Of a stretch of 64,000 nucleotides of DNA, positions 10,871 to 64,000 are shown in pieces (position 1 is the first letter of the stretch; each line of letters opens with the position of its first letter). The translations under genes were made by a program, and so were the position numbers. Source of the DNA: Corallococcus exiguus. GTDB lineage: Bacteria > Myxococcota > Myxococcia > Myxococcales > Myxococcaceae. Below the pieces are notes generated by a model. It worked only from the letters and a program-made list of their open reading frames with translations. It searched no databases and was not told the origin of the DNA. The DNA lies in the NCBI RefSeq assembly GCF_017302975.1, contig NZ_JAFIMT010000003.1. One strand, given 5' to 3'.

Positions 10871-10926
10871 GAAGTTCTTCCTTCTTCCCTTCCCGTCCCG
10901 AAAACGTTCAACGCCACCTGTGTCGT

Positions 10927-43749: not shown

Positions 43750-44008
43750 GGTCCCGGAGTCTACCCGGACCACCGTGCCCGGGGGCGTGCCCGGCGGCTT
43801 TTCTCCACCGCAAAGCCATACATCAATAACAGACGTCCCTCTCCTCACCCTGAGAGGACCCGGTGGAGGTCACTCAGCCGGAAACACCGTTTCGATGCGA
43901 CTGCAAGCCCCCTCCCCTGGGTCAAAAGTCGCCGTGAAGCGGGAGATCCAGCGGCTTGTCGGAGCCCAGGATGTTTCGTGAGACATTCGCGGGGTTCTCA
44001 ACGTTTAC

Positions 44009-47359: not shown

Positions 47360-50300
47360 GGAGACAGCGGACACGGTGGAGCGCATCGCCATCGTCGGCA
47401 TGTCGGGACGCTTTCCGGGCGCTCCCACGCTCGACGCCTTCTGGGACAACCTCCGGCGCGGCGTGCACTCCCGGCGCGAGCTGACCGAGGCGGATCTGGA
47501 GCAGGCCGGTGTGCCCCGTGCCCAGCGCGAGCGGCCGGATTGGGTGCGCGCCGCGTATCCGCTGGATGGGCCCACGCACTTCGACGCGGGGTACTTCGGC
47601 TACAGCCCGCGCGAGGCGGAGGTGCTGGATCCGCAGCAGCGCGTCTTCATGGAGACAGCGCTGGAGGCCCTGGAGGACGCCGGCTACGACCCGGAGCGCT
47701 TCCCCGAGGCCATCGCCGCCTTCGCGAGCACCAGCACCAGCTCGTACCTGTTCCAGGCGCTCCTGCGGCGTCCGGAGCTGTTGCAGACGGTGGGCCTGTA
47801 CAATCTGTCGCTCGCCAACGACAAGGACTTCGTCGCCACGCGCACCTCGCACCGGCTGGGCCTGCGGGGGCCGAGCGCCACCGTGCAGACGGGCTGTTCC
47901 AGCGCGCTGGTGGCGGTGCACCTGGCCTGTCAGAGCCTCTTGTCGGGCGAATGCGAGATGGCGCTCGCGGGCGGCGTCTCCGTGGCGTTTCCGCAGACGG
48001 CCGGGTACGCGTACCAACCAGGGATGATCATCTCCCCGGACGGGCTGTGCCGCGCGTACGACGCCCGCTCGCAGGGCACCATCTTCGGCTCGGGCGTGGG
48101 CGTGGTGGTGCTCAAGCGCCTGTCGGAGGCGGTGCGGGACCGGGACACCATCCACGCGGTCATCCTGGGGTCGGCCGTCAACAACGACGGCTCCGCCAAG
48201 GCGGGCTTCACCGCGCCCAGCGTGGAGGGCCAGGCGGCCGCCATCGCGGAGGCGCTCGGCGTCGCGGGCGTGGAGCCGGAGGATGTGCAGTACGTGGAGG
48301 GGCACGGTACGGCGACGGCCCTGGGCGACCCGGTGGAGGTGGCCGCGCTCAACCAGGCCTTCGGCGGCGCGCGCTCGGGCACGCGGCGCTGCGTGCTGGG
48401 CACCGTGAAGGCGAACATCGGCCACCTGGACTCCGCCGCGGGCGTGGCGGGGCTGCTCAAGACGGTGCTGGCCCTGAAGCACGCGGTCATCCCCCCCACG
48501 CCTCACTTCCAGCAGCCCAACCCCGCCATCGACTTCGACGGTGGCCCCTTCTTCGTCACCGCCGAGCCCAGGCCGTGGGACGGAGCGGTGAAGCGCCGGG
48601 CCGGGGTCAGCTCGTTCGGCCTGGGGGGCACCAACGCCCACGTGGTGCTGGAGGAGCCGCCGCGCGCGAAGGCCGCCGGCACCCGGCGCGCGTGGCACGT
48701 GCTTCCGCTGTCCGCGCGCACGCCCCGAGCGCTGGAGGAGGCCACGTCCCGGCTCGCCGCGCACCTGGAGCGCACGCCGGGCCTGGAGTTGGCGGACGTC
48801 GCGTCCACGCTCCAGCGAGGCCGCCGCACGCACGAGCACCGGCGCGCGCTGCTCTGCCGTGACCTGGAGGATGCGCGGGCCGCGCTTGCGGATCCACGGC
48901 GCCACCTGGGGGGCTCGAGCGTGAACGCGCGCCGCCCCGTGGTGTTCCTCTTCCCCGGCCACGGCAGCCACCACGTGGACATGGGCCGCGCGCTGTACGA
49001 AGCGGAGCCCGTCTTCCGCAAGCACCTGGACGCGTGCCGAGACGCGCTGGCCCCGCATCTGGGCCAGGACCTGTGCTTCGTGCTGTTTCCGGATCAAGCA
49101 CCGCAGGAGGCGGAGGCGCTGCTGGAGCGGATGACCTTCGCGCAGCCCGCGATGTTCGCGGTGGAGTACGCGCTCGCGCAGCTGTGGCGTTCGTTCGGCG
49201 TGGAGCCGGAGGCCATGGTCGGCCACAGCACGGGCGAGTACGTGGCCGCGTGCCTCGCGGGCGTGTTCTCGCTCCCGGACGCGCTGGCGCTGGTGGCCGC
49301 GCGCGGGCGCCTCATGGATGCGCTGCCTCCCGGCGGCATGCTGTCGGTGTCCCTGCCAGAGGACGCACTCGCGCCGCTGCTGCCACCAGGGGTTTCCGTC
49401 GCGGCGGTGAACGCGCCCGCGCTGGTCGTGGTGGCTGGGCCCTCCCAGGCGTTGGAGGCGCTGGAGGCGACGCTGGCCGCCAGGGGCGTGAGCACCCGGC
49501 GGATCCGCGCCCGGCACGCGTTCCACTCAGAGGCCGTGGCGCCGATGGTGGAGGGCTTCCTCCAGGAACTTTCGCGCGTGCGCCTGTCGCCGCCGAAGCG
49601 GCCGTACGTCTCCAGCCTGACCGGGACGTGGATCACCGCCGCGCAGGCGACGGATCCACGAACCTGGGCGAGCCACCTGCGCGAACCCGTCCGCTTCGCG
49701 CAGGCCGCGACCACGCTGCTTGGGAGCACGGAGCGGCTCTATCTGGAAGTCGGTCCGGGCCAGGCGCTGGGGACATTCGTCCGGCAGTGCGCCCCCCCGG
49801 GCAGTCACCCCACCGCCCTCACGTCGCTGCCGCGCCCGCGCGATGGCCAGGACGCCCACCTGCACCTGACGGAGACAGCCGCCCGGCTCTGGCTGGCCGG
49901 CGCATCCATCGACCTGGCGAAGCTGTACGGCAAGGAGCCCCGCCGCCGCGTTCCACTGCCGCCCTACCCCTTCCAGCGGGAGCGCTTCGACCTGCTCGCG
50001 GTCGCGTCCGTTCCGGGTGCCCGGCTTCCGGCCTTCGCGGTGTCCGAGGTCCCCCGCGAGGACGTCACCCCCGCGCTCGAGTGCGCGGCGCCCACGTGGC
50101 AGCGCGTCGCGGGCGCTCCCGTCCCCCGCTTCGATGATCAGCGCTGGCTGGTGATGGAGGATGCGAACGCGCCGGGAGGAAGCATCGCGCGGCTGATGGA
50201 AGCACGAGGCGCGGATATCCTCGCGCTGGGATTGGACGCGGCATGGGCGCCGCTCGAGGAACGGCTGGCGGCCGGTGGAGGGCCGGACCACGTCGCGTTC

Positions 50301-53300
50301 CTGTGGCCCCTGGCTCCGGCGGAGGGCCCGGGCGCGGTGGACCGCGTGCTTCACGGACTGCTGGAGCTCGCTCGGCGGTTGGGGCCGGCCGCGGCCGCGC
50401 GGCCCGTAACGCTGGCCGTGATCACGTGTGGCGCCCAGGACGTGACGGGCGAGGAGCCCCTCCGCGCCTGGCAGGCCACCGCATCCGGAGTGTGCCGGGT
50501 GCTGGCTCAGGAGTACCCGGGGCTGCGCTGCCGCTCAATCGACGTGAGCCCGCCACGACCCGAGGAAGGTCCACGCTGGTCGGAGCAGCTGGTGGCGGAG
50601 CTGGGCGCGGGCGGGCCGGCCGTGGTCGCGCTGCGCGGACCGCACCGCTTCACGGAGTCGTTCGAACCGGTCGTCCCGCCGCGCACGGTGACATCTCCCC
50701 TGCGCCAGGGCGGCGTGTACCTGATCATGGGAGATCTGGAGGCCGGTGGCCTCGCCCTGGCAGAAGCGCTCGCCACCACCGCGCAAGCGCGGCTGGTGCT
50801 GTTGACCGACACCGTGCCCCAGGCGTCCCATCTGGAGCGCCTGGGAGGTCTCGAGCGCGCGGGGGCCCAGGGCGTGCTCTTCGCGCCGATGGGCGCGGGG
50901 GATCCCGAACCGCTCCTCCAGGGAATGATCGCCGCCGAGGCCCGTTTCGGCGCGATCCACGGCGTCTTCTTCTTGCCGCAGGGCACGGCGGGCGCGGACC
51001 GACAATCCCTGGCGGACGCCACGGCCGAGGCGTGGGCGCCCGTCTTCCGCTCCCGCGTGGGTGTGCTGGGCGCGCTGGCCGGAGCGCTCCAAGGGCGTGC
51101 TCCGGACTTCGTGACGGTGTGCTCGTCGCTGACGGCCGTGGTGGGCGGCGTGGGCCGGGGCGTGCTGGCCGCCGCGCATGCCGCGATGGACACCTTCGCG
51201 GCGCAACAGAACCGGGGCCCGGGCCCACGCTGGTACGTGGTGGACCTCGATGCGTGGCGGGAGGAGGTCATCCCGGTGTGGATGGGCCTGCTCGCCGCCT
51301 CGGGGCAGGGAGGACGCTGGTGGATCTCCCGGGGCCCGCCGCGCGCGGAGGAGCCGGAGGATGGTGGGACGCCCGGGACGGCGCCGGATCCGGCAAGCGG
51401 TTCCCGGGGCACCGGACGGCATCCCCGCCCGTCGTTGGCGACCCCGTACGTGGCTCCCCGTGGCGACAGCGAGCGCCGCGTGGTGGAGCTGTGGCAGGAG
51501 ATGCTGGGCATCGACGCGCTCGGCGTGGACGATGACTTCTTCGAGCTGGGCGGCCACTCGCTGCTGGCCACCCAGGTGCTCGCGCGCGTGAGGTCCGCCT
51601 TCGCCGTGGAGCTGCCCCTGCGCGCTTTCTTCGAAGCGCCCACGCCCGCGAAGCTCGCGGAGCGCGTGGACGCCGCGACTGCTGCTGGCGCTCCCGCGAA
51701 CGTTCTCCCTCCGCTGACGCCCGTGCCTCGCGATGGACAGCCCCTGCCGCTGTCCTTCTCCCAGCAGAGCCTCTGGTTCCTCGATCAGCTCCACCCGGGA
51801 GGCAGCGCCTACAACATGCCGTCCGCCCTCCGGCTGGAGGGCCGCGTCGACACGGCGGCGCTCGAGCAGTCCTTCACGGAGCTGGTCCGCCGGCACGAGG
51901 CGCTGCGCACCACCTTCCACGCGGACGGCGGCGCACCCCTGCAGCGCATCCACCCACCGGCGAACTTCCGGCTGGCGGTGATGGACGTGTCGTCCCACGG
52001 GACTCCCGAAGCGGAGTCGCACCGGCTCGCGGCGGAGGAGCAGCTGCGTCCGTTCGATCTCGCCGCGGGGCCGTTGCTGCGCGCGGTGCTGATCCGGCTC
52101 GCGGAGGCACGGCACGTGCTGGTGGTGACGATGCACCACATCGTCTCCGACGGCTGGTCGCTGGGCGTGCTCGTCCGGGAGATGGTGGCCCTCTACCAGG
52201 CCTTCGCGTCCGGACAGCCCTCCCCGCTGGCCCCGCTGCCGGTGCAGTACGCCGACCATGCCGCGTGGCAGCGCGCGTGGCTTCGGGGAGAGGCCCTGGA
52301 GTCGCGGATCCGCTGGTGGCGTCAGCAGTTGGAAGAAGCCCCCGCGTTCCTGACGCTGCCCACCGACTTCCCGCGTCCACCGGTGGCGTCCTTCCGGGGC
52401 GACGCGGTGCCCGTCGCCCTGCCACGCGCGCTCTCAGAGTCCCTGGCAGCGTTGTGCCAGGCCGAGGGCGTCACCCCGTTCATGGCCCTGCTGGCCGGAT
52501 TCCAGGCCCTGCTCAGCCGCTATTCGGGCCAGGACGACGTGAGCGTCGGCAGCGCCATGGCCGGCCGCCGGTTCGCGGAGCAGGAAGCGCTCATCGGCTT
52601 CTTCGTGAACACGCTGGTGTACCGCACGCGCCTGCACGCGGCCCCCACGTTCCGCGAGCTGCTCGCCCGCGTGCGCGACACGACCCTGGAGGCGCACGCC
52701 CACCAGGACCTGCCCTTCGAGAAGCTCGTCGAGGCGTTGCGGCCGGAGCGGGATCCCTCGCGCTCGCCTCTCTTCCAGGTGAACTTCACGTTCCAGAACA
52801 TGCCCATGGGCACGCTGGAGGCGCCGGGGCTGCGCTTCGAGCCCATCCCCATCGAGGGCGGCACGGGTCGCTTCGACCTGACGCTGGTGCTCACCGACAC
52901 GCCGCGAGGCCTGACAGGCACGCTGGAGTACGCCAGCGACCTGTTCCGCCCGGAGACGGCACGGCGCCTGGTCACCCACCTGCACGTGCTGCTGGAGGGG
53001 GCGCTGCGAAGCCCCCAGCTGCGGCTGTCCGAGCTGCCCCTGCTCACGGACGCCGAGCGCCACGAGGTACTGGTGGACTGGAACGCCAGCGACGCGGACT
53101 TCCCGCGCGAGGCGAGCCTGCACACGCTGTTCGAGGCGCAGGTCCGGAGCACGCCGGAAGCGCAGGCGGTCGTCTTCGAAGCGCAACACCTCACGTACCG
53201 ACAGCTGGACGCGCGCGCCAATCAACTCGCGCACCACCTGCGCGCGCTGGGGGTGGGCCCCGAGGTCATCGTGGGGCTGTGCGTGGAGCGCTCGGTGGAG

Positions 53301-56300
53301 GGCGCGGTGGGAATGCTCGCCATCCTCAAGGCGGGAGGCGCTTTCCTCTGCCTGGATCCCGCCCATCCCACCGCGCGGCTCGCGCTGATGCTGGAGGACT
53401 CGGGGCTCCAGGTGCTGTTGACCCAGGACGCGCTGCTGGACGTGCTGCCCCTGTCCTCGTCCTGCGTGCCGTGCTGTTTCGACGCCGACGCGGCCGCCAT
53501 CTCGCGCCGCCCCACGACGCCGCCGGAGGTGGAGGTCCACGCAGGGAACCTGGCCTACGTCATCTACACCTCGGGCAGCACTGGACGGCCCAAGGGCACG
53601 CTCCTCGCGCACCGGGGGCTGTGCAATTCGGTGCTCGCGGCGGTCCGGGCCCATGCGCTGTCCCCTACGAGCCGCGTCCTCCAGTACGCGTCCCCGACCT
53701 TCGATGCCGCCATCCTGGAGACCTTCGCGCCGCTGCTCGCGGGAGCCACGCTGGTGCTGGCCCCTCGGGAGCGGCTGCTGCCGGACGCGCCGCTGCGCGC
53801 GCTGTTGACCGAGCAGGAGATCACAACGGTCACGCTGACACCGTCGGTGCTGGCGCAGCTGACGTCGGAGGATCTCGCGAGCCTGCGCACCGTCATCTCC
53901 GCGGGCGAGGCCCTGTCTCCGGAAGTTGCCCGGCGCTGGAGCGAGGGCCGCACCCTGCTCAACGCCTACGGTCCCACCGAGGCCACCGTCTGCGCCTCCA
54001 TCACGCCAGGGCCGGTCCACGCCGACGCGCCCGGCATCGGCAAGCCGTGGCCCAACACGCGGCTCTACGTGCTGGATGCGAATCTGCGGCCGGTGCCCGT
54101 GGGCGTACCGGGAGAGTTGTTCATCGGGGGCGTGTGCCTGGCCCGGGGCTACCTGGGCCGTCCAGACCTCACCGCCGGGCGCTTCCTCCCTGATCCCTTC
54201 GGCACCGAGCCCGGCGCGAGGCTGTACCGCACCGGAGACCGCGTGCGCTGGAGGCAGGAGGGAGACCTCGAGTACCTGGGCCGGACCGACTTCCAGGTGA
54301 AGCTGCGCGGCTTCCGCATCGAGCTGGGAGAGGTGGAGGCCGCGCTGCAAGCACATGCGGCGGTCCTCCAGGCCGTGGCGATGGTGCGCGAGGACGCACC
54401 GGGGCTGCCCAGGCTGGTCGCATACGTGGTGGCGAACGGGGACGGGCCTCTGGACGTGGCCGCGCTGCGTGAGTTCCTTCTGCAGCGTCTGCCCGAGTAC
54501 ATGGTGCCCGCGACGCTCGTCGTGCTGGAGGCGTTGCCGCTCACCTCCAGTGGCAAGGTGGACCGAAGGGCCCTGCCTTCACCCGAGAGCCGCGCGAGCG
54601 GCACCCCGGGCTACGTGCCCCCACGCACGCCCACGGAAGAGCGGCTCGCGGCGCTCTGGGCACCGCTGCTCCAGGTGGAGCAGGTGGGCGCGGAGGATCA
54701 CTTCTTCGAACTGGGAGGCCATTCGTTGCTGGCCACCCAGCTCGTCTCCCGCATCCGCGCGGACTTCGGCGTCGAGTTGGCGCTGCAAGCCCTCTTCGAA
54801 GCCCCGACGCTCGCGGCGCTCGCACGCCGGCTGGACGCGGCCCGGCCCGAGGACGCATCGCGGGCCCCGCCCCTGCTGCCGGTGCCACGCACAGGTGCCC
54901 TGCCGCTGTCCTTCGCGCAGCAGCGCCTGTGGCTCATCGAGCAGATCGAACCCGGAGGCACCGCCTACAACATCCCCACGGTCCTGCGGATCCGCGGACG
55001 CCTGGACCGGGGCGCGCTGGGCAGGGCCTTCAGCGGGCTCGTCGAACGTCACGAATCCCTGCGCACCATCTTCGCCACGCAGGACGGCGAGCCCGTGCAG
55101 ATCATCCAGCCCTCCACGGAGTTCGCGCTGCCAGAGGTGGACCTGTCGGACGCTCCGGACTCGGAGCGCGTCCGGCAATGCGCCGAAGCAGAGACCCAAC
55201 GCCCGTTCAATCTGGCGGAGGGGCCGCTGCTCAGAGCCCTGCTGCTGCGAATGGGCGAGCAGGAGCACGTGCTCGTGGTGACGATGCACCACATCGTCTC
55301 CGACGGCTGGTCCATGGCCCTGCTCGTGCGTGAGGTCGCATCCCTCTACGCGTCCTTCTCCTCAGGCCTCGCACCCTCGCTTGCGCCCCTGAGTCTCCAG
55401 TACGCCGACTTCGCCGCGTGGCAGCGGCAGTGGCTGCAAGGCGACGTCCTCTCCCGCCAGCTCGACTTCTGGCGCCAGCAACTCTCCGGTGCTCCTGCCC
55501 TCCTGGAGTTGCCCACCGACAGGCCACGCCCCGCCGTCCAGTCCTCTCGCGGCGCCTGGGTCCCCTTCCATCTTCCTCAGCCCCTTACCTCCAGCCTCCT
55601 CAGCTTCTGCCAGCAGCAAGGCGCCACCCCCTTCATGGCCCTGCTCGCCCTCTGGCAGCTGCTCCTGTCCCGCTACTCAGGCCAGCTCGACATCAGCGTC
55701 GGCGCTCCCATCGCGGGCCGCACCCGCTCAGAAACCGAAGGCCTCATCGGCTTCTTCGTCAACACCCTCGTCCTTCGCTCCCACGTGGAGCCGCACTCGA
55801 CGTTCCGTCAGCTGCTCTCCCACGTGAGGGCCACCACTCTCGCCGCCTTCGAGCACCAGCACCTCCCCTTCGAGAAGCTCGTCGAGGAACTCCAGCCCCA
55901 GCGCTCCCTTCGTCACTCCCCTCTCTTCCAGGTGATGTTCACGCTGAGGAACACGCCGGACGCGGCCATCCAGGTGGAGGGGGGCGCTTCCGCGCTGGAG
56001 TTGAGTCCGGTGGATTCGGAGGTCGTCGCGGCGAAGTTCGACCTGAACCTCTCACTTGCGGAGACACCCGAGGGCCTGGCCGGGGAGATCCTCTACCGGG
56101 CGGACCTGTTCGATGCGGCCACCATCACCCGCATGGGCGAACACCTGCGCACGTTGACGGAGGCCACGCTCGCTGCGCCGGATGCGCCCGTGGGCGACCT
56201 ATCCCTGCTGTCCGCCGGGGAACACGCGCAGGTGCTGGAGGGCTTCAACGCGACCGCGGACGCATTCGTCGCACCAGGCCCCCTGCACTCGATCATCGAG

Positions 56301-59300
56301 GCTCGGGCCGCCCGCCACCCGGAGCGGCCAGCGGTGGCCTGCGCCGGTGAGGTGCTCACGTATGGGGCGCTGGACACGCGCGCCAACCAACTGGCGTGGC
56401 GACTGCGCTCGCTGGGCGTGGGTCCCGAGACGCGCGTCGGGCTGTGCCTGGAGCGCTCGGTGGACATGGTGGTGGCCCTGTTGGGGGTCTGGAAGGCCGG
56501 GGGAGCGTACGTCCCGCTGGAGCCGTCCCAACCCGCGCAGCGGCTACGGACCCTGGTGGAGGAGATCGCCGCCCCCGTCGTCGTGACAGCGTCTCGTCAC
56601 GCGGAGGCCTTCACTTCGCTCGCGGCGCACGTGGTGCGGATGGACACGGACGCGCAGGTGCTCGCGGCCCAGCCACGGGAAGCTCCCGCCCACGGCGCCA
56701 CCGCGCGGTCACTGGCCTACGTCCTCTTCACGTCGGGCAGCACGGGCCGGCCCAAGGGCGTGGCCGTGGAGCATGCCCAGCTCTTCCAGTACGTGCGGGC
56801 CGCCACCGAAAGGCTGCGGCTGGAGGAGTGCGCAAGCTTCGCGCTCGTCTCCACCTTCGCCGCGGACCTGGGCAACACGGTGCTCTTCCCCGCGCTGTGC
56901 ACGGGAGGCCTGCTCCACGTGCTGCCGCAGGAGTTGGCCAGCAGCCCCGCGGAGGTGGCGGCGTACTTCCAGCGCCACGCGGTGGACTGCATGAAGATCG
57001 TCCCATCGCACCTGGCGGCGCTGCTGACGGCGGCCGAGCCCCGCCACGTCCTGCCCCGGAAGAAGCTGGTGCTGGGAGGTGAGTCCTCCTCGCCGGCCCT
57101 GCTGGAGCAGGTGCGAGCGCTGGCGCCGGACTGCGAGCTGTTCAACCACTACGGCCCCACGGAGACGACCGTGGGAGTGAGCGCGGGTCCGGTGGAGGTC
57201 CGGCCCCAGGCACCGGTCCCTCTGGGCCGGGCCCTGGCGCACACGCGGCTGTATGTCCTGGACGAAAGGCTGCGGCCCGTGCCCGTGGGCGTCCCGGGCG
57301 AGTTGTTCATCGGCGGCGCGCAGGTGACGCGCGGCTATCTCGGCAGGCCGGAGCTGACGGCGGAGCGCTACTTGCCGGACGTGCACAGCCCGCTGCCAGG
57401 CGCGCGCATGTACCGCAGCGGGGATCGGGTGCGCTGGCTGCCGGATGGGCGCGTGGAGTTCATCGGTCGCGCCGACTTCCAGGTGAAGGTGCGCGGCTTC
57501 CGTGTGGAGCCGGGAGAAGTCACCGCGGCCCTGAACGAACACCCCGCCGTGCGTGAGGCCTGGGTCGTGGCGCGCGAGGACATGCCCGGGGATGCGCGGC
57601 TGGTGGCCTACGTCGTGAGTGCGGCGGAGCCCGTGCCCACCGGGGAGCTGCGCGCCTTCCTCCAGGAGCGGCTGCCGGCCTACATGGTGCCTGCCGCCTT
57701 CGTGCACCTGGAAGCGATGCCGCTCACCTCGAACGGCAAGTTGGATCGCAAGGCCCTTCCCGCGCCAGAAGACACGACCCGCGAGGCGGCCTTCATCGCC
57801 CCGCGAACGCCCACCGAGGAACGGCTCGCGGCCCTGTGGGCCGGGCTGTTGCGCGCGGAGCGGATCAGCGTGGAGGAGGACTTCTTCGCGCTCGGTGGCC
57901 ACTCACTGCTGGCAACGCAGGTGGTCTCGCGGGTGCGCCAGACCTTCGAGGTGGAGCTGCCGGTGCGAGCGCTCTTCGAAGCGCCCACCGTGGCCGCGCT
58001 CGCGGCGCGCATCGACTCCGCCGCGCGTACGCAGGCCCCTGCCCTGCGCCCTGTTCCTCGTGACGGGGACCTGCCCCTCTCCTTCGCCCAGCAGCGCCTC
58101 TGGTTCATCGACCAGTTGCAGCCGCTGAGCGCCGCCTACCACATGCCCACCTTCGTGCGGCTGGTGGGCCCTTTGGATGAAGCCTCGCTACAACGCGCGC
58201 TGGATGAACTGGTGCGTCGTCACGAAGCCCTGCGCACCACCTTCGTCCAGCACGAAGGCCAACCGCTTCAGCGCATCTCCGCCACGGCGCAGCTGCCGCT
58301 CGTCGTCTTGGAGCCGGGGGCCGTTCCCCTGGAGCCGCAGCTGAGAGAAGAGGCCTCACGACCCTTCCAGCTCGACTCCGGTCCCCTGGCCCGAGCGAGG
58401 CTCTGGCGCCTGGGCCCCACCGAGCACGTGCTCGCGCTCACGCTCCACCACATCGTCTCCGACGGCTGGTCCATGGGCGTGCTGGTGCGCGAAGTCGCCG
58501 CCCTCTACGAGGCCTTCTCCCAGGGCAGGCCTTCCCCCCTTCCACCTCTGCCCGTGCAGTACGCCGACTACGCCGTCTGGCAGCGACAGTGGCTGCAAGG
58601 CGACGTCCTCCAGGCGCAACTGGACTACTGGAAGCACCAGCTCTCTGGCTCCGCTCCGCTGGAGCTGCCCACGGACAAGCCCCGGCCTCCCGTGCAGTCC
58701 TCCCACGGCGCGCAGGTGCCTGTCGTCCTGCCGGCCGAGACGTCCCGTCGAATCAAGGCCCTGGGTCTCCAGGAGGGCGTCACGCCCTTCATGCTGTTGC
58801 TGGGCGCCTTCCAGGTGCTGCTCTCCCGCTACTCCGGCCAGGAGGACATCACCGTCGGCTCTCCCATCGCCGGACGTCAGCGCGGGGAGCTCGAAGACCT
58901 CATCGGCTTCTTCGTCAACACGCTGGTGCTTCGTGCACGCGTTGCCCCCGCCCTCTCCTTCCGGGCCTTGCTCGCGCAGGTGAAGGAGACGGCACTGGGG
59001 GCCTACGCCCATCAGGACGTCCCCTTCGAGCGGCTGGTGGAGGAGCTTCACCCCACGCGCGACATGAGCCGCGCTCCGCTCTTCCAGGTCCTCTTCTCCC
59101 TGCAAGGCGTACCCGGCACGGAGCCCCTTCGGAGCCAGGCCCTGTCGCTGCACCCATTGGAGGCGGACACCGCGACCTCCAAGTTCGAATTGCAGCTCAT
59201 CCTCTCCGCCCCCCCTGAGGGCTTCCGAGGCACGCTCGCCTTCAACACCGACCTCTTCGAAGAAAGCACTGCCTCACGCATGGCCGGGCACTTCGGCCGC

Positions 59301-62300
59301 CTCGTGGATGCACTGCTGACACGGCCCGACGCACCTCTGGCCTCCGTCTCCATGCTCGGCGAGGACGAACGGCGCCAGGTGCTCGTGGAGTGGAACACCA
59401 CTGCTTCCGACTTTCCTCGCGACGCCAGCATCCACTCGCTCTTCCACGAACAGTCGCTGCGGACTCCGGACGCCGTCGCCGTCGAGGCGGAAGGGACGAC
59501 GCTCACCTATCGGCAGCTGGATGCGCGCGCGAATCAGCTCGCGCGTTTCCTGCTGACACTGGGCCTGGGTCCGGAGCCGCGCATCGGGGTCTGTCTCCAC
59601 CGGAGCGTGGATCTGGTGGTGGGGCTGCTGGGCATCCTCAAGGCCGGTGGCTGCTACGTGCCGCTGGATCCTTCCTACCCGCCCCAGCGGTTGGCGTTCC
59701 TGCTCGGGGATTCGGATGTGGCGGCGGTGCTCACGCATCAGTCCCTGACGCCGGTGCTTCCGGAGTCCTCGCGCCCGGTGGTGTGCCTGGACTCCGACGG
59801 GGAACGGATTGCACGTCAGCCGGTGGAAGCGCCGCACGCGCCCGTCCGCGCGGATCAACTGGCGTATGTCACGTACACGTCGGGTTCGACGGGGACGCCC
59901 AAGGGCGTGGCCATTCCCCACCGGGGCGTGGTGCGGCTGTTGTTCGGCTCGCGCTTCGTGAAGCTGGGGCCGTCGGAGGTCGTGTTGCAGCTCGCGCCGC
60001 TGGCGTTCGACGCGTCGACCCTGGAGCTCTGGGGTGCGCTGTTGCACGGCGGCCGGTTGGTGCTCTTTCCCCAGGCGGTTCCGTCGATGGAGGAGCTGGG
60101 CCAGGCCCTGCTCCGGCATCAGGTTTCGGTGCTCTGGCTGACGGCGGCGCTCTTCGACCAGATGCAGCAGGAGCAGCCTCAAGCCCTCGCGGCCGTGGCG
60201 CAGCTCCTCGCCGGAGGCGATGTGCTCCCCGTGCCGCGGGTTCGCGAGCGGCTGGCCCAGTCGCGCGGCCTCGTGAACGGCTACGGCCCCACGGAGAGCA
60301 CGACCTTCACCACGTGTCACGTGATGGCTCCCGGAGACGCCGTGGGCGGCTCCGTGTCCATCGGCCGGCCCATCGCCAACACCCAGGTCTACGTGCTGGA
60401 TGCGGCGATGCAGCCGGTCCCAGTGGGAGTGCCGGGCGAGCTGTACATTGGCGGTGACGGCCTGGCGCGGGGCTACCTGGGGCGGCCAGCCCTCACCGCG
60501 GAACGCTTCGTGCCGCATCCCTTCGCGGCGTCGCCGGGCGAGCGGCTGTACCGCTCCGGGGACCGCGTGTGCTGGAGCGAGGACGGCACGCTGAGGTTCC
60601 TGGGGCGCATGGACTTCCAGGTGAAGCTGCGCGGCTTCCGCATCGAACCGGGCGAAGTGGAGGCGGTGCTGCGCGAGCACGCCGACGTCACCGAGGCGAC
60701 CGTGCTGGTGCGCGAGGACATCCCCGGAGACAAGCGACTGGTGGCCTACGTCGTGCCCGCGGAGCTGGACCCAGCGAGGCTGCGAGACCACCTGCGCCAG
60801 CGTCTGCCGGAGTACCTGGTGCCATCCGCCTTCGTGGCGATGAAGGCCTTGCCGCTGTCGGCCCACGGCAAGGTGGACCGCAAGGCACTGCCCGCACCGG
60901 AAGCCCCACGCGGCTCCGCGCCCCACGAGCCCCCGCGCAACGCGCTGGAGACCCAGCTGGTCTCGCTCTGGGAGAAGGTCCTGGGCCGGGAAGGCATCGG
61001 CATTCACGATCACTTCTTCGAACTGGGAGGCCATTCACTGCTGGCGACCCAGCTCGTCTCCCGGATCCGTTCCGCACTGGAAGTGGAGCTGCCAGTGCGA
61101 GCGCTCTTCGAAGCGCCCACCGTGGCCGCGCTCGCGGCGCGCATCGACTCCGCCGCACGCACGCAGGCCCCTGCCCTGCGCCCTGTTCCTCGTGACGGGG
61201 ACCTGCCCCTCTCCTTCGCCCAGCAGCGCCTCTGGTTCATCGACCAGTTGCAGCCGCTGAGCGCCGCCTACCACATGCCCACCTTCGTGCGGCTGGTGGG
61301 CCCTTTGGATGAAGCCTCGCTACAACGCGCGCTGGATGAACTGGTGCGTCGTCACGAAGCCCTGCGCACCACCTTCGTCCAGCACGAAGGCCAACCGCTT
61401 CAGCGCATCTCCGCCACGGCGCAGCTGCCGCTCGTCGTCTTGGAGCCGGGGGCCGTTCCCCTGGAGCCGCAGCTGAGAGAAGAGGCCTCACGACCCTTCC
61501 AGCTCGACTCCGGTCCCTTGGCCCGAGCGAGGCTCTGGCGCCTGGGCCCCACCGAGCACGTGCTCGCGCTCACGCTCCACCACATCGTCTCCGACGGCTG
61601 GTCCATGGGCGTGCTGGTGCGCGAAGTCGCCGCCCTCTACGAGGCCTTCTCCCAGGGCAGGCCTTCCCCCCTTCCACCTCTGCCCGTGCAGTACGCCGAC
61701 TACGCCGTCTGGCAGCGACAGTGGCTGCAAGGCGACGTCCTCCAGGCGCAACTGGACTACTGGAAGCACCAGCTCTCTGGCTCCGCTCCGCTGGAGCTGC
61801 CCACGGACAAGCCCCGGCCTCCCGTGCAGTCCTCCCACGGCGCGCAGGTGCCTGTCGTCCTGCCGGCCGAGACGTCCCGTCGAATCAAGGCCCTGGGTCT
61901 CCAGGAGGGCGTCACGCCCTTCATGCTGTTGCTGGGCGCCTTCCAGGTGCTGCTCTCCCGCTACTCCGGCCAGGAGGACATCACCGTCGGCTCTCCCATC
62001 GCCGGACGTCAGCGCGGGGAACTCGAAGACCTCATCGGCTTCTTCGTCAACACGCTGGCACTGCGCATCCAGGTGGACGGGCAGAAGTCGTTTGTTCACT
62101 TGTTGCGACAGGTGAAGGAGACGGCGCTGGGGGCCTACGCCCATCAGGATGTCCCCTTCGAGCGGCTGGTGGAAGAGCTTCAGCCCACGCGCGACATGAG
62201 CCGCGCTCCGCTCTTCCAAGTCCTCTTCGCCCTACAGAACGCTCCGGCCTCATCTCTTCGCGAGCAGGCCCTGTCGCTGCGCCCGTTGGACGTCGAGGCC

Positions 62301-64000
62301 TCCACCTCCAAGTTCGAATTGCAGCTCATCCTCTCCGACACCCCCGAGGGCTTCCAGGGGGCCCTCGGCTTCAACACCGACCTCTTCGACGCGAGCACCG
62401 CCTCGCGCATGGCCGCGCACTTCGGCCGCCTCGTGGATGCGTTGCTGGCACGGCCCGACGCGCCCCTGGCATCGGCCTCCATGCTCAGCGAGGACGAGCG
62501 GCGCCAGGTGCTCGTGGAGTGGAACAACACCGAGGCCAGCTATCCGCAGGACTCCACCCTTCCTGAAGTCTTCGCTCAGGTCGTCGCCCGATTCCCCGAG
62601 ATGCTCGCACTTGAGTTCGGAGAGGCACGCCTCACCTACCGGCAGCTGGACGCGCAGGCCAACCGCCTTGCGCACCACCTGCGCGGTCTCGGCGTCACCA
62701 CCGACTCGCGAGTGGCCATCGCGCTGGACCGCTCGCTAGAACTCGTCGTCGGCCTGCTCGCCATCCTCAAGGCTGGCGGCGCCTACGTACCGCTGGATCC
62801 CAGCTACCCACCTGAGCGTCTCGCGGCCATGGTCGAGGACGCCCGTCCGCGTGTCCTCCTCACGTCCCGTGCACTCCTGTCGAAGCTGCCCGAGGCCTTG
62901 TCCACGGTGGTGCTGGAGGAAGTCTCGCTGGAGGGCCTGCCGACCCACGCCCCTGCGCCTTCCGCCCTTCCTCTGAGCCTCGCCTATATCGACTTCACCT
63001 CCGGCTCCTCCGGCAGGCCCAAGGGCGTCGGCACTCCTCACCGCGCCGTCCTTCGCACCCTCTTCGGCAAGGGCCTCACCCACTTCGGGCCCGACGCGTC
63101 CTTCTTGCTCCTCGCCCCCATCTCCTTCGACGCCTCCACCTTCGAAATCTGGGGCGCCCTGCTTCACGGCTCACGTCTCGTCATCGCCCCCCCCTCTCCT
63201 CCCTCCCTCGAAGAGTTGGGCGCACTCATTCAGCGCTCATCCATCACCACCCTCTGGCTCACCTCCGGCCTCTTCTCCCAGATGGTCGACGGCCACCTCG
63301 AAGGCCTTCGCCCCCTCAAGCACCTGCTCACCGGAGGCGACGTCGTCTCGCTCGCGCACGCGCGACAAGTCCTCGACTCGCTCCACCTCCCCGTCACCAA
63401 CGGCTACGGCCCCACCGAGTCCACTGTCTTCGCCACGGCCCTCCACCTCCGTGACACAACCTTTCCCGGTGCCTCGCTGCCCATCGGCAAGCCCCTGGCC
63501 AATACCCGCGTCTACGTCCTCGACGCCCACGGCCTTCCGCTTCCCATCGGCCTGCCCGGTGAACTCTTTATCGGCGGTGACGGCCTCGCGCGCGGATACC
63601 TTGAGCAGCCCTCCCTCACCGCGGAGCGATTCCTCCCTGACGCCTTCTCCTCCACTCCCGGCGCGCGTCTCTACCGCACCGGCGACAAGGCCCGCTGGCG
63701 CACGGACGGCTCTCTCGAGTTCCTCGGCCGCCTCGACTCCCAGGTGAAGCTGCGCGGCTTCCGCATCGAGTTGCCCGAAGTCGAAGCCGCCTTGCTTCTC
63801 CACCCCGACGTACGCCAGGCCGTCGTCCTGCTTCGCGAAGACGTCCCCGGCGACAAGCGCCTCGTCGCCTACGTCACCGCCCCAGACACACTCTCCGCCT
63901 CCAGCCTGCGCCCTTTCCTCCTACGGCACCTCCCCGAGTACATGGTGCCCTCCGCCTTCGTGCACCTGGACGCCTTGCCCCTCACTGCCCAGGCCAAGCT
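47352..64000 (+). CDS. Giant hybrid PKS-NRPS gene, partial (continues beyond the window; more than 5,549 aa in window). Layout: KS-AT-KR(inactive-like)-T, then C-A-T, C-A-T, C-A-T, C-A(partial).
   Basis: The ATG overlaps the upstream NRPS stop by 8 nt. The frame is open to the window end; the ORF track lists no ORF in this frame, and every listed ORF here lies in the other two frames. The KS domain shows TGCSSALVA, EGHGTATALGDP and KANIGHL. The AT domain shows GHSTGEYVAA. The KR-like region lacks the GxGxxG and YAAAN signatures (GDLEAGGLA…LAAAH). The carrier domain reads DDFFELGGHSLLATQV. Four A domains carry SGSTG(R/T)PKG and K(L/V)RGFR(I/V)E core motifs; the first near 53.55 kb, 56.73 kb, 59.88 kb and 63.0 kb. 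C domains carry HHI(V)SDGWS. Confidence 0.85.
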   Translation, partial: MSEETADTVERIAIVGMSGRFPGAPTLDAFWDNLRRGVHSRRELTEADLEQAGVPRAQRERPDWVRAAYPLDGPTHFDAGYFGYSPREAEVLDPQQRVFMETALEALEDAGYDPERFPEAIAAFASTSTSSYLFQALLRRPELLQTVGLYNLSLANDKDFVATRTSHRLGLRGPSATVQTGCSSALVAVHLACQSLLSGECEMALAGGVSVAFPQTAGYAYQPGMIISPDGLCRAYDARSQGTIFGSGVGVVVLKRLSEAVRDRDTIHAVILGSAVNNDGSAKAGFTAPSVEGQAAAIAEALGVAGVEPEDVQYVEGHGTATALGDPVEVAALNQAFGGARSGTRRCVLGTVKANIGHLDSAAGVAGLLKTVLALKHAVIPPTPHFQQPNPAIDFDGGPFFVTAEPRPWDGAVKRRAGVSSFGLGGTNAHVVLEEPPRAKAAGTRRAWHVLPLSARTPRALEEATSRLAAHLERTPGLELADVASTLQRGRRTHEHRRALLCRDLEDARAALADPRRHLGGSSVNARRPVVFLFPGHGSHHVDMGRALYEAEPVFRKHLDACRDALAPHLGQDLCFVLFPDQAPQEAEALLERMTFAQPAMFAVEYALAQLWRSFGVEPEAMVGHSTGEYVAACLAGVFSLPDALALVAARGRLMDALPPGGMLSVSLPEDALAPLLPPGVSVAAVNAPALVVVAGPSQALEALEATLAARGVSTRRIRARHAFHSEAVAPMVEGFLQELSRVRLSPPKRPYVSSLTGTWITAAQATDPRTWASHLREPVRFAQAATTLLGSTERLYLEVGPGQALGTFVRQCAPPGSHPTALTSLPRPRDGQDAHLHLTETAARLWLAGASIDLAKLYGKEPRRRVPLPPYPFQRERFDLLAVASVPGARLPAFAVSEVPREDVTPALECAAPTWQRVAGAPVPRFDDQRWLVMEDANAPGGSIARLMEARGADILALGLDAAWAPLEERLAAGGGPDHVAFLWPLAPAEGPGAVDRVLHGLLELARRLGPAAAARPVTLAVITCGAQDVTGEEPLRAWQATASGVCRVLAQEYPGLRCRSIDVSPPRPEEGPRWSEQLVAELGAGGPAVVALRGPHRFTESFEPVVPPRTVTSPLRQGGVYLIMGDLEAGGLALAEALATTAQARLVLLTDTVPQASHLERLGGLERAGAQGVLFAPMGAGDPEPLLQGMIAAEARFGAIHGVFFLPQGTAGADRQSLADATAEAWAPVFRSRVGVLGALAGALQGRAPDFVTVCSSLTAVVGGVGRGVLAAAHAAMDTFAAQQNRGPGPRWYVVDLDAWREEVIPVWMGLLAASGQGGRWWISRGPPRAEEPEDGGTPGTAPDPASGSRGTGRHPRPSLATPYVAPRGDSERRVVELWQEMLGIDALGVDDDFFELGGHSLLATQVLARVRSAFAVELPLRAFFEAPTPAKLAERVDAATAAGAPANVLPPLTPVPRDGQPLPLSFSQQSLWFLDQLHPGGSAYNMPSALRLEGRVDTAALEQSFTELVRRHEALRTTFHADGGAPLQRIHPPANFRLAVMDVSSHGTPEAESHRLAAEEQLRPFDLAAGPLLRAVLIRLAEARHVLVVTMHHIVSDGWSLGVLVREMVALYQAFASGQPSPLAPLPVQYADHAAWQRAWLRGEALESRIRWWRQQLEEAPAFLTLPTDFPRPPVASFRGDAVPVALPRALSESLAALCQAEGVTPFMALLAGFQALLSRYSGQDDVSVGSAMAGRRFAEQEALIGFFVNTLVYRTRLHAAPTFRELLARVRDTTLEAHAHQDLPFEKLVEALRPERDPSRSPLFQVNFTFQNMPMGTLEAPGLRFEPIPIEGGTGRFDLTLVLTDTPRGLTGTLEYASDLFRPETARRLVTHLHVLLEGALRSPQLRLSELPLLTDAERHEVLVDWNASDADFPREASLHTLFEAQVRSTPEAQAVVFEAQHLTYRQLDARANQLAHHLRALGVGPEVIVGLCVERSVEGAVGMLAILKAGGAFLCLDPAHPTARLALMLEDSGLQVLLTQDALLDVLPLSSSCVPCCFDADAAAISRRPTTPPEVEVHAGNLAYVIYTSGSTGRPKGTLLAHRGLCNSVLAAVRAHALSPTSRVLQYASPTFDAAILETFAPLLAGATLVLAPRERLLPDAPLRALLTEQEITTVTLTPSVLAQLTSEDLASLRTVISAGEALSPEVARRWSEGRTLLNAYGPTEATVCASITPGPVHADAPGIGKPWPNTRLYVLDANLRPVPVGVPGELFIGGVCLARGYLGRPDLTAGRFLPDPFGTEPGARLYRTGDRVRWRQEGDLEYLGRTDFQVKLRGFRIELGEVEAALQAHAAVLQAVAMVREDAPGLPRLVAYVVANGDGPLDVAALREFLLQRLPEYMVPATLVVLEALPLTSSGKVDRRALPSPESRASGTPGYVPPRTPTEERLAALWAPLLQVEQVGAEDHFFELGGHSLLATQLVSRIRADFGVELALQALFEAPTLAALARRLDAARPEDASRAPPLLPVPRTGALPLSFAQQRLWLIEQIEPGGTAYNIPTVLRIRGRLDRGALGRAFSGLVERHESLRTIFATQDGEPVQIIQPSTEFALPEVDLSDAPDSERVRQCAEAETQRPFNLAEGPLLRALLLRMGEQEHVLVVTMHHIVSDGWSMALLVREVASLYASFSSGLAPSLAPLSLQYADFAAWQRQWLQGDVLSRQLDFWRQQLSGAPALLELPTDRPRPAVQSSRGAWVPFHLPQPLTSSLLSFCQQQGATPFMALLALWQLLLSRYSGQLDISVGAPIAGRTRSETEGLIGFFVNTLVLRSHVEPHSTFRQLLSHVRATTLAAFEHQHLPFEKLVEELQPQRSLRHSPLFQVMFTLRNTPDAAIQVEGGASALELSPVDSEVVAAKFDLNLSLAETPEGLAGEILYRADLFDAATITRMGEHLRTLTEATLAAPDAPVGDLSLLSAGEHAQVLEGFNATADAFVAPGPLHSIIEARAARHPERPAVACAGEVLTYGALDTRANQLAWRLRSLGVGPETRVGLCLERSVDMVVALLGVWKAGGAYVPLEPSQPAQRLRTLVEEIAAPVVVTASRHAEAFTSLAAHVVRMDTDAQVLAAQPREAPAHGATARSLAYVLFTSGSTGRPKGVAVEHAQLFQYVRAATERLRLEECASFALVSTFAADLGNTVLFPALCTGGLLHVLPQELASSPAEVAAYFQRHAVDCMKIVPSHLAALLTAAEPRHVLPRKKLVLGGESSSPALLEQVRALAPDCELFNHYGPTETTVGVSAGPVEVRPQAPVPLGRALAHTRLYVLDERLRPVPVGVPGELFIGGAQVTRGYLGRPELTAERYLPDVHSPLPGARMYRSGDRVRWLPDGRVEFIGRADFQVKVRGFRVEPGEVTAALNEHPAVREAWVVAREDMPGDARLVAYVVSAAEPVPTGELRAFLQERLPAYMVPAAFVHLEAMPLTSNGKLDRKALPAPEDTTREAAFIAPRTPTEERLAALWAGLLRAERISVEEDFFALGGHSLLATQVVSRVRQTFEVELPVRALFEAPTVAALAARIDSAARTQAPALRPVPRDGDLPLSFAQQRLWFIDQLQPLSAAYHMPTFVRLVGPLDEASLQRALDELVRRHEALRTTFVQHEGQPLQRISATAQLPLVVLEPGAVPLEPQLREEASRPFQLDSGPLARARLWRLGPTEHVLALTLHHIVSDGWSMGVLVREVAALYEAFSQGRPSPLPPLPVQYADYAVWQRQWLQGDVLQAQLDYWKHQLSGSAPLELPTDKPRPPVQSSHGAQVPVVLPAETSRRIKALGLQEGVTPFMLLLGAFQVLLSRYSGQEDITVGSPIAGRQRGELEDLIGFFVNTLVLRARVAPALSFRALLAQVKETALGAYAHQDVPFERLVEELHPTRDMSRAPLFQVLFSLQGVPGTEPLRSQALSLHPLEADTATSKFELQLILSAPPEGFRGTLAFNTDLFEESTASRMAGHFGRLVDALLTRPDAPLASVSMLGEDERRQVLVEWNTTASDFPRDASIHSLFHEQSLRTPDAVAVEAEGTTLTYRQLDARANQLARFLLTLGLGPEPRIGVCLHRSVDLVVGLLGILKAGGCYVPLDPSYPPQRLAFLLGDSDVAAVLTHQSLTPVLPESSRPVVCLDSDGERIARQPVEAPHAPVRADQLAYVTYTSGSTGTPKGVAIPHRGVVRLLFGSRFVKLGPSEVVLQLAPLAFDASTLELWGALLHGGRLVLFPQAVPSMEELGQALLRHQVSVLWLTAALFDQMQQEQPQALAAVAQLLAGGDVLPVPRVRERLAQSRGLVNGYGPTESTTFTTCHVMAPGDAVGGSVSIGRPIANTQVYVLDAAMQPVPVGVPGELYIGGDGLARGYLGRPALTAERFVPHPFAASPGERLYRSGDRVCWSEDGTLRFLGRMDFQVKLRGFRIEPGEVEAVLREHADVTEATVLVREDIPGDKRLVAYVVPAELDPARLRDHLRQRLPEYLVPSAFVAMKALPLSAHGKVDRKALPAPEAPRGSAPHEPPRNALETQLVSLWEKVLGREGIGIHDHFFELGGHSLLATQLVSRIRSALEVELPVRALFEAPTVAALAARIDSAARTQAPALRPVPRDGDLPLSFAQQRLWFIDQLQPLSAAYHMPTFVRLVGPLDEASLQRALDELVRRHEALRTTFVQHEGQPLQRISATAQLPLVVLEPGAVPLEPQLREEASRPFQLDSGPLARARLWRLGPTEHVLALTLHHIVSDGWSMGVLVREVAALYEAFSQGRPSPLPPLPVQYADYAVWQRQWLQGDVLQAQLDYWKHQLSGSAPLELPTDKPRPPVQSSHGAQVPVVLPAETSRRIKALGLQEGVTPFMLLLGAFQVLLSRYSGQEDITVGSPIAGRQRGELEDLIGFFVNTLALRIQVDGQKSFVHLLRQVKETALGAYAHQDVPFERLVEELQPTRDMSRAPLFQVLFALQNAPASSLREQALSLRPLDVEASTSKFELQLILSDTPEGFQGALGFNTDLFDASTASRMAAHFGRLVDALLARPDAPLASASMLSEDERRQVLVEWNNTEASYPQDSTLPEVFAQVVARFPEMLALEFGEARLTYRQLDAQANRLAHHLRGLGVTTDSRVAIALDRSLELVVGLLAILKAGGAYVPLDPSYPPERLAAMVEDARPRVLLTSRALLSKLPEALSTVVLEEVSLEGLPTHAPAPSALPLSLAYIDFTSGSSGRPKGVGTPHRAVLRTLFGKGLTHFGPDASFLLLAPISFDASTFEIWGALLHGSRLVIAPPSPPSLEELGALIQRSSITTLWLTSGLFSQMVDGHLEGLRPLKHLLTGGDVVSLAHARQVLDSLHLPVTNGYGPTESTVFATALHLRDTTFPGASLPIGKPLANTRVYVLDAHGLPLPIGLPGELFIGGDGLARGYLEQPSLTAERFLPDAFSSTPGARLYRTGDKARWRTDGSLEFLGRLDSQVKLRGFRIELPEVEAALLLHPDVRQAVVLLREDVPGDKRLVAYVTAPDTLSASSLRPFLLRHLPEYMVPSAFVHLDALPLTAQAK
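57960..58930 (+). repeat. Copy 1 of a near-identical direct repeat of about 0.97 kb inside the PKS-NRPS gene. It covers the end of a PCP domain plus the first two-thirds of a C domain.
   Basis: It is identical or nearly so to 61090..62060, offset 3132 bp. Identical shadow ORFs corroborate this: 58105..58359 with 61237..61491, and 58268..58474 with 61400..61606. Confidence 0.7.
61090..62060 (+). repeat. Copy 2 of the ~0.97-kb direct repeat. Diverged homology continues for about 0.5 kb further downstream of both copies.
   Basis: I aligned the text directly. Identity is essentially complete up to about 62,057, after which the sequence diverges for about 60 nt and then shows substitutions only. 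Confidence 0.7.

Follow-up and report, generated by a model that had tools for sequence, protein, structure and literature searches.

How two successive modules of one biosynthetic gene came to share almost a kilobase of nearly identical DNA, with different adenylation (A) domains beside it, is the question raised by this locus of Corallococcus exiguus. We analysed a stretch of 64,000 nt (the window), for which an earlier note had described a tandem repeat inside an NRPS gene and judged it consistent with recent module duplication or gene conversion. Comparison of the sequences indicates that the repeat was very probably left by recurrent gene conversion within the gene (concerted evolution), acting between the condensation (C) domains of the last two modules.

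The features of the locus are given in Table 1. The ATG of ORF2 at 47352 overlaps the stop codon of ORF1, and an HD-domain ORF is present upstream. The reading frame of ORF2 is open from 47157 to 63998, through both repeat copies, and the 3' part of the gene lies beyond the window end; its ortholog in Corallococcus carmarthensis (locus L001) ends with PCP-TE after module 5, the tail comprising a PCP and a thioesterase with the motif GWSLG. The NRPS elongation modules showed Condensation, AMP-binding and PP-binding domains in order, with Pfam matches far over the curated cut-offs, and the HHxxxDG, A3/A10 and GGxS motifs were found intact in them by motif scan.

Table 1. Features of the NRPS locus and of its internal repeat (positions in the window)
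Feature	Position	Strand	Basis or remark
ORF1, NRPS module 1 (C-A-PCP), 1,116 aa	44009..47359	+	ORF list; Pfam Condensation, AMP-binding, AMP-binding_C, PP-binding
ORF2, hybrid PKS-NRPS (KS-AT-KR-ACP, C-A-PCP x3, C-A)	47352..64000	+	Pfam domains
PCP3, thiolation domain of module 3	57819..58013	+	Pfam PP-binding; core motif LGGHSL from 57891
C4 condensation domain	58065..59381	+	Pfam PF00668, E = 2.6e-114; active-site motif HHIVSDG
A4 adenylation domain, outside repeat	59442..60872	+	Pfam; code DALWLGGTFK
PCP4	60954..61145	+	Pfam; core motif LGGHSL from 61023
C5 condensation domain, last module	61197..62510	+	Pfam PF00668, E = 2e-119
A5 adenylation domain, truncated by window end, outside repeat	62571..63998	+	Pfam; code DAFWLGGVFK
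Probable recent conversion tract, copy 1 (last 21 aa of PCP3, PCP-C linker, C4 motifs C1-C5)	57951..58926	+	5 mismatches/976 bp
Probable recent conversion tract, copy 2 (end of PCP4, linker, C5-domain motifs C1-C5)	61083..62058	+	
Island, copy 1 (17 codons right after C5 motif FFVNTL)	58927..58976	+	form VLRARVAPALSFRALLA
Island, copy 2	62059..62108	+	form ALRIQVDGQKSFVHLLR
Older, probably homogenised segment, copy 1 (motifs C6-C7)	58977..59096	+	5 mismatches/120 bp, 96% identity
Oldest homologous tier, copy 1 (rest of C4 and C-A linker to EWNTT at 59388)	59097..59395	+	
Older homologous tiers, copy 2 (C6-C7, rest of C5 domain, C-A linker to WNxT)	62109..62524	+	

Aligned at a constant shift of 3,132 bp (1,044 codons, in frame), 57951-58926 and 61083-62058 were identical at 971 of 976 bp (99.5%), which bears out the near-identical repeat of about 0.97 kb and its period as described earlier. 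The five mismatches (57962, 58025, 58028, 58386 and 58889) are all synonymous GC-to-AT transitions, each a singleton against the other three sequences of the two-species comparison below, and the 325 encoded residues are the same in both copies; perfect identity extends over runs of 357 bp and 502 bp. By the Pfam limits, the tract takes up the first 65% of each of the C4 and C5 domains, both in the last two modules, in agreement with the claim that it reaches from the end of one PCP through about two-thirds of the next C domain. In these columns, identity between other module pairs is 50-75%, which excludes chance. The C4/C5 repeat is the sole one with at least 85% identity in the 64-kb window, and the statement that everything else is unique holds for the window only. 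Of 159 NRPS loci used for comparison, about a quarter contain internal repeats that are 500 bp or longer and at least 80% identical. GC-biased conversion was considered and rejected, as the tract, with GC and GC3 of 0.69 and 0.85, is no richer than the remainder of the gene (0.71 and 0.88).

The neighbouring sequence, described earlier as some 0.5 kb of homologous but diverged DNA, turned out to be more layered. The tract is followed by an island of 50 bp with 36% identity between the copies, then by a segment of 120 bp at 96% identity and, after a 3-bp indel, by an outer tier (59097-59395) that is 83-87% identical to copy 2. Identity is at inter-module background upstream of 57951 and downstream of 59395, and the total duplicated region at 80% identity or above amounts to about 1.44 kb. 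The flanking A domains do differ as claimed, A4 and A5 sharing 53% amino-acid and 50-65% nucleotide identity (44-55% at the protein level for other A-domain pairs). Their specificity codes, the comparison of which had been proposed, are however similar and Val-like (DALWLGGTFK vs DAFWLGGVFK).

The region 49448-64000 aligned with C. carmarthensis NZ_RAWE01000069 as one block of 14,571 nt at 92% identity. The two clusters are collinear and have an identical module set, so that this number of modules was in place before the species diverged; the comparison of module number, also proposed earlier, thus gave no support to a recent duplication. We sorted the informative sites of the four sequences (W4 and W5, the two copies here; K4 and K5, those of C. 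carmarthensis) into those grouping the copies by genome and those grouping them by position. Within the tract, W4 and W5 differ at 5 positions, K4 and K5 at 34, and orthologs at 65-68; the copies here are thus 0.5% apart, and each is 6.7-7.0% from its own ortholog. Informative sites within the tract were 46 by genome and 0 by position, a count which, like the identity, could be inflated by bubble-popping that erased true differences, if the assembly is a short-read one. By position against by genome, the upstream flank gave 71:0, the island 28:0 and the A-domain start 42:2 (pooled, 141 and 2; Fisher's exact test against the tract, p = 5e-42). Since the flanks follow orthology, the event was confined to a bounded tract and does not reflect the history of the whole gene. 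Synonymous sites make up 31 of the 46 by-genome sites, which are spread over 57992-58885. The homogenisation is non-reciprocal, with copy number unchanged in the collinear 14.6-kb alignment.

C. carmarthensis carries a tract of its own, which is older (the 34 differences, none of which is common to the window copies by position) and has its first base at 57880, where the FF of FFxLGGHSL is encoded; the tract here begins 71 bp farther downstream (57951, still inside the PCP). The 3' boundary is common to both species. Read from their sequences, the two tracts are independent conversion events in sister species with the same 3' stop. Over 58977-59096, paralogs and orthologs show about the same degree of identity, and the event that homogenised this segment would therefore predate the species split.

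A protein database search with the PCP-C4-A4 unit gave only matches of at most 1,830 aa and at most 60% identity, with no ortholog of the protein of more than 5,600 aa. Scanning metagenomes with a 40-nt exact pattern gave 0 matches, and a protein-guided metagenome scan yielded 79 loci, none of which exceeded 61% identity or was an ortholog; they were used solely as a baseline set. Two Myxococcus loci (L002 and L003) having an A4-like domain with 76% amino-acid identity were tried as orthologs and rejected, as chunk-wise BLAST confined the likeness to the A domain; since the A domain alone is similar, they are different clusters.

Gene conversion is preferred to duplication because the modules are shared, the copies are closer to each other than to their orthologs, and the by-genome sites stand at 46:0. 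A recent tandem duplication of the whole module, its A domain later replaced or quickly diverged, would fit the period of exactly one module and the likeness of the two A-domain codes, and the 83-87% identity of the C-terminal third of C4 and C5 agrees with an old duplication of the C domain at least. However, any duplication predates the split from C. carmarthensis (about 7-10% nucleotide divergence, against 0.5% in the tract), the site pattern by genome demands homogenisation after speciation, and the near-identity of the whole unit including the A domain is absent, the 53% between A4 and A5 being background. Relatives with one module fewer were not found, and the sole ortholog from the genome and metagenome collections has the same modules. 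Recent duplication is thus very improbable, and of the two origins offered in the earlier note it is gene conversion that stands. The copies might also be truly more different and have been collapsed or homogenised by the assembler, or, in the extreme form, one copy might be spurious, a repeat of about 1 kb at such identity being a recognised hazard for short-read assemblers. Yet a separate assembly of another species has the same two-copy layout and the same 3' boundary, the open reading frame runs throughout both copies, and the C. carmarthensis copies retain their differences. Moreover, isolated single-base differences at 58386 and 58889 survive in mid-tract, where systematic bubble collapse would have erased both. 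We consider an artefact quite unlikely; for annotation, both copies are genuine and should neither be merged nor flagged as a duplication error, while the short-read hazard, of which the earlier note reasonably warned, persists.

Strong purifying selection or protein convergence, without DNA transfer, would account for the identical residues but not for the synonymous sites, where the 5 differences between paralogs compare with 39-44 synonymous codon differences to orthologs and where most of the by-genome sites fall. Because synonymous sites are homogenised as well, protein-level selection is not the cause, and we give it practically no weight. A GRINS element, recoding the region and favouring conversion as in assembly-line PKS genes, is unlikely, though GRINS have occasionally been seen in NRPS modules of hybrid clusters (PMC8256042). 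By definition these exceed 500 bp at more than 80% identity within a cluster and have mean absolute GC and TA skews both above 0.15 and strongly correlated (PMC8256042). The tract exceeds the size and identity limits (976 bp at 99.5%), and in 150-nt windows with a 30-nt step its mean absolute GC skew is barely over the threshold (0.151/0.152 for the two copies). Its TA skew (0.142/0.137) is under 0.15 and outside the strict definition, and the two skews are not positively correlated (r = -0.25 and -0.24). Non-repeated regions are as skewed or more so (GC/TA 0.175/0.142 in C3 and 0.278/0.171 in A5), and GRINS are rare in proteobacteria (PMC8256042).

Under gene conversion, the C4 and C5 domains, each with the C-terminal part of its feeding PCP, would form an old paralogous pair, the paralogous unit being bounded by the core motif of the PCP on one side and by WNxT in the C-A linker on the other. 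The copies lie 3,132 bp apart in direct orientation, and homologous recombination between them, with a presumed role for RecA, would have overwritten one copy with the other repeatedly, leaving the module number unchanged. The latest event here would have covered 976 bp and halted exactly at the 50-bp island after motif C5; it would be recent, with a paralog divergence of about 8-12% of that from C. carmarthensis, the number and timing of events being estimated from two lineages and a rough molecular clock because one orthologous genome was found. We infer that unequal crossover through the 357-bp and 502-bp perfect runs could plausibly delete or duplicate module 4 in frame. These runs lie one module apart and in frame, so the peptide of sister strains may have one residue fewer or more.

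The island lies between motifs C5 and C6, aligns to about residues 294-310 of Txo1 and has homogenised DNA on either side. Its copies differ at 32 of 50 bases, and copy 1 differs from its ortholog at 5 of 50. At the protein level, 9-10 of 16-17 residues differ between the modules and 0-1 between the species within a module, copy 2 being 100% conserved in C. carmarthensis. The form VLRARVAPALSFRALLA of copy 1 is the common myxobacterial one; ALRIQVDGQKSFVHLLR of copy 2 is unusual, with no close relative of this C5-domain version among the 159 NRPS loci, and no third donor for the island was found among the other C domains of the window or 80 comparison loci. The role of the C5-C6 segment is not addressed in a review of C domains. 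Tentatively, the island may be functionally non-interchangeable, and selection may shield it from repeated gene conversion. It could provide a module-specific contact with the downstream A domain or the acceptor PCP, or could reflect the terminal-module context; its module-specificity would result either from selective protection or from a mere block to heteroduplex extension. The pattern suggests that the part running from the C-terminal portion of the PCP as far as motif C5 can be swapped between the two modules and that the 17-residue segment after motif C5 goes unexchanged in nature. If this reading of the island is true, natural conversion tracts would offer a usable engineering boundary in C domains, from the T-core motif to just after motif C5.

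Comparison with published units places the outer block on known ground. The chirality unit extends from the T1 motif to the CA motif (PMC11428043), and the XUT and XU fusion points of Bozhuyuk et al. lie in the T-domain core and at WNATE in the C-A linker, respectively (bioRxiv 10.1101/2022.12.02.518901). As given in the available text of these two sources, their boundaries match the outer block here, which is bounded by the PCP core motif (57880/57891) and by EWNTT at 59388; in none of them does the block include the A domain or the first half of the PCP, and EWNTT follows motif C7 (59058) by about 102 aa, as does the CA motif. It is only the outer, older block whose raised paralog identity ends at 59390-59395. 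The recent tract, which ends at 58926, is shorter than the chirality unit as described there, starting about 20 aa past the PCP serine and ending after motif C5. This inner boundary is absent among the breakpoints and unit boundaries in the available text of both sources, and the repeats in two other loci examined (L054 and L070) continue straight through C5-C6, with no boundary after motif C5.

The repeat resembles GRINS (Nivina et al. 2021, PMC8256042) as an intragenic repeat of 0.3-1.4 kb with more than 80% identity between modules, attributed to gene conversion, and departs from them in its TA skew, in its uncorrelated skews and in lying in the NRPS part of a gene of a myxobacterium. In pyoverdine synthetase, the C domains Pa8 and Pa11 are near-identical with a few regions of low identity (Calcott et al. 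2020, PMC7486941); as here, two similar C domains of one pathway have short divergent regions that are candidate specificity determinants. Shuffling of Pa8 and Pa11 indicated that A-domain swaps were limited by the C-A linker and not by the divergent C-domain regions (PMC7486941), which calls for caution in viewing the island as a specificity determinant. Concerted evolution of NRPS/PKS domains by internal recombination, NRPS C and A domains included, has been described by Medema et al. (2014, PMC4256081). As in that study, paralogous domains of a cluster are closer than orthologs between related clusters, copy number is unchanged and functionally diverged parts escape homogenisation; the site pattern of 46:0 against 2:141 is the same signature at nucleotide resolution. 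That study drew on protein trees at the domain level for clusters that make different compounds, whereas here we have a single base-resolved tract, two apparently independent events, one in each sister species, and a short island within the repeat that escapes homogenisation. Gene conversion is a real but ordinary evolutionary route for modular genes, and the current understanding of NRPS evolution is unchanged; the repeat would be a clean, base-resolved new case of a known process, concerted evolution inside an NRPS gene.

The repeat lies in ORF2, the second of two neighbouring NRPS / hybrid PKS-NRPS genes, in which Pfam domains were found in the order KS-AT-KR-ACP, three C-A-PCP modules and a fourth C-A. 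The gene immediately upstream of ORF1, selA, is on the opposite strand, and the biosynthetic cluster therefore appears to start at ORF1, with selA as its border. The first C domain of ORF1, with which the assembly line opens, carries HHGVSDAWS, with Ala replacing Gly of the HHxxxDG motif, and could be of the starter (lipoinitiation) type.

Coordinates (window positions) of the genes, domains and repeat segments
Feature	Position	Strand	Remarks
selA (L-seryl-tRNA selenium transferase)	42355-43848	-	Pfam E = 3.6e-144
ORF1	44009-47359	+	C-A-PCP
ORF2	ATG 47352, open up to window end	+	start overlaps ORF1 stop
PCP3	57819-58013	+	Pfam fine mapping
C4	58065-59381	+	Pfam fine mapping
A4	59442-60872	+	Pfam fine mapping
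PCP4	60954-61145	+	Pfam fine mapping
C5	61197-62510	+	Pfam fine mapping
A5	from 62571	+	Pfam fine mapping
Tract, copy 1	57951-58926		C4 side
Tract, copy 2	61083-62058		C5 side
Island, C4	58927-58976		after motif C5
Island, C5	62059-62108		after motif C5

Comparison of the two tract copies at a fixed offset of 3,132 bp revealed only 5 mismatches in 976 bp (copy 1 positions 57962, 58025, 58028, 58386 and 58889), while the remaining module pairs of ORF2 showed 50-75% identity over the same alignment columns. From the Pfam fine mapping, each copy comprises the final 21 PCP residues, the PCP-C linker (17 residues) and the first 65% of the next C domain, spanning core motifs C1 to C5. The earlier note, made from sequence alone, had described a near-identical repeat of about 0.97 kb and 3,132-bp period, running from the end of a PCP through about two-thirds of the next C domain, and both its size and its extent hold. 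Directly 3' of the tract is a 50-bp island, where 32 of the 50 bases are unlike between the copies, followed by 120 bp (58977-59096) of 96% identity. A 3-bp (one-codon) indel, located in a low-identity short stretch right after motif C7 (59097-59130 versus 62229-62259), then brings the offset down to 3,129 bp; the next 300 bp or so, up to about 59395, are 83-87% identical. Outside these limits identity was that of the inter-module background, and megablast of the window against itself detected no other repeat of 85% identity or more.

A-domain codes were derived by alignment to GrsA, for which the procedure returned the canonical code, DAWTIAAICK, at the expected positions, a check on the numbering. 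The codes were DVENFGGVTK (A1), DALTIAAVCK (A2), DLTKVGHVGK (A3), DALWLGGTFK (A4) and DAFWLGGVFK (A5), of which that of A3 presumably resembles Asp codes and those of A4 and A5 presumably Val codes. A4 and A5 proteins were 53% identical, within the range of all A pairs (44-55%), so the flanking A domains do differ, as had been claimed.

Scanning one genome per species, we obtained a single orthologous cluster, that of Corallococcus carmarthensis CA043D, to which window positions 49448-64000 aligned as a single 14,571-nt block with 92% identity. This relative has the same modules, and its locus continues with PCP-TE after module 5, which makes module 5 the final one. Its contig NZ_RAWE01000069 stops within the thioesterase region (position 15694 of the locus), before any stop codon; therefore both the window and the ortholog locus end short of the 3' end of the gene. 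The next-best loci, from Myxococcus qinghaiensis (L002) and M. llanfair...gogogochensis (L003), were rejected as orthologs, as only an A4-like A domain is common and the clusters differ. That domain (L002 10001-11461; L003 10001-11452) showed 76% protein and 75-79% DNA identity with A4, with flanks at 66-74% in NRPS genes otherwise non-orthologous to the window gene, which suggests A-domain-level sharing among myxobacterial clusters.

The window copies (W4, W5) and the C. carmarthensis copies (K4, K5) were aligned and informative sites were scored as grouping by genome or by position. In the tract, 46 sites grouped by genome and none by position; the respective counts were 0 and 71 in the upstream flank, 0 and 28 in the island, and 2 and 42 at the A-domain start (tract versus the other three regions, p = 5e-42, Fisher's exact test). 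Pairwise differences in the tract numbered 5 for W4-W5, 34 for K4-K5 and 65-68 between orthologs. All five W4/W5 differences were synonymous GC-to-AT transitions and singletons with respect to the other three sequences, and look like mutations younger than the last conversion. Concerted evolution by gene conversion, later than the species split, is thus well supported. The earlier note had left recent module duplication and gene conversion side by side; the 46:0 site pattern upholds conversion, and the presence of the same modules in both species rules out recent duplication as the source of the near-identity. Protein-level selection cannot explain the by-genome pattern either, since 31 of the 46 sites are synonymous and they are scattered over the full length of the tract. 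An assembler might have partly homogenised the copies, but the independent C. carmarthensis assembly shows the same layout, isolated single-base differences are still present and the reading frame is open, all of which argue against such homogenisation. The repeat itself is a real feature.

Conversion also appears to have acted separately in the two species. K4 and K5 have 16 private changes each, not the 33 or so each expected if the last conversion had predated the split, and the by-genome class (46 sites) is enlarged to match; assuming roughly equal rates, this would imply at least one conversion in each of the two lineages on which, with a single ortholog, our view of the events rests. On this rough molecular clock, we place the conversion in the window genome at about 8-12%, and that in C. 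carmarthensis at about 40-50%, of inter-species divergence. The homogenised tract of C. carmarthensis begins at 57880, where the PCP core motif FFxLGGHSL has its FF, 71 bp upstream of the tract start in the window genome; in C. carmarthensis this 71-bp stretch is a mosaic in which some bases are W4-like and others W5-like. In the 120-bp and 300-bp tiers paralogs are about as similar as orthologs, so these tiers go back to older events or to the original C-domain duplication. The perfect-identity runs between the copies (357 bp and 502 bp) are spaced exactly 1,044 codons apart, and unequal crossover between them would remove module 4 or double it without disturbing the reading frame.

Among the 17 codons of the island, 3' of FFVNTL, 9-10 residues are unlike between C4 and C5. 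Each module has kept its own island between the species, with 1 and 0 non-synonymous codon changes, respectively. The C4 island has the form that is common in myxobacteria; for the C5 island, ALRIQVDGQKSFVHLLR, comparison of DNA and of protein with the window's other C domains and with 80 fetched loci gave no close relative. Conversions that overwrite the island may be removed by selection; alternatively, its mismatch of 64% may in itself be enough to stop a heteroduplex from extending. Short divergent regions of otherwise similar C domains were not a functional barrier in the pyoverdine case (PMC7486941), a precedent for caution in reading the island functionally.

The full block of elevated paralog identity starts at the PCP core motif and ends in the C-A linker, at the EWNTT motif (59388), which lies about 102 aa past motif C7. 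Its two boundaries are the same as those of the 'chirality unit', which extends from the T1 motif to the CA motif and which PMC11428043 puts forward as a unit of natural recombination in NRPSs. They also agree with the XUT and XU fusion points, which were obtained by evolutionary analysis (bioRxiv 10.1101/2022.12.02.518901). In other fetched NRPS loci, too, repeats often began at WNxT or close to the T core. The inner 3' stop right after motif C5 is at the same position in both species but is not general, because repeats in two other loci (L054, L070) continue through C5-C6.

Of 159 fetched NRPS loci, 38 had internal direct repeats that were 500 bp or longer and at least 80% identical, with a period of 1.5 kb or more; seven of these loci reached 90% identity or more and three 99% or more. 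Such repeats form a common continuum, with the window repeat at its recent end. L054, a 21.5-kb Methylocapsa aurea NRPS, has many internal repeats (0.5-2.9 kb, 90-99.5% identity) over several modules and is a case of extreme module homogenisation or recent duplication. GRINS are defined as duplicated sequences of >500 bp and >80% identity in which the mean absolute skew is >0.15 for GC as well as for TA (PMC8256042). The window repeat falls outside this definition: its GC skew was 0.151 and its TA skew 0.137-0.142, the two were uncorrelated (r = -0.25), and unduplicated parts of the gene were equally or more skewed. The tract had no sign of GC-biased conversion. The strongest GC skew of ORF2, negative on the coding strand (mean -0.28, 150-nt windows), was in the A5-coding region (62520-64000), in GRINS terms a single-copy skewed region. 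A Candidatus Binataceae MAG locus (L080) has a 1,322-bp, 100% identical repeat (3357-4678 versus 9909-11230) that begins at the WNxT linker motif and extends through A-domain motifs A3-A8, a mirror image of the window, with the A domain homogenised there and the C domain here. That NRPS and PKS domains undergo concerted evolution is well known (PMC4256081), and the window case is a further instance of this process.
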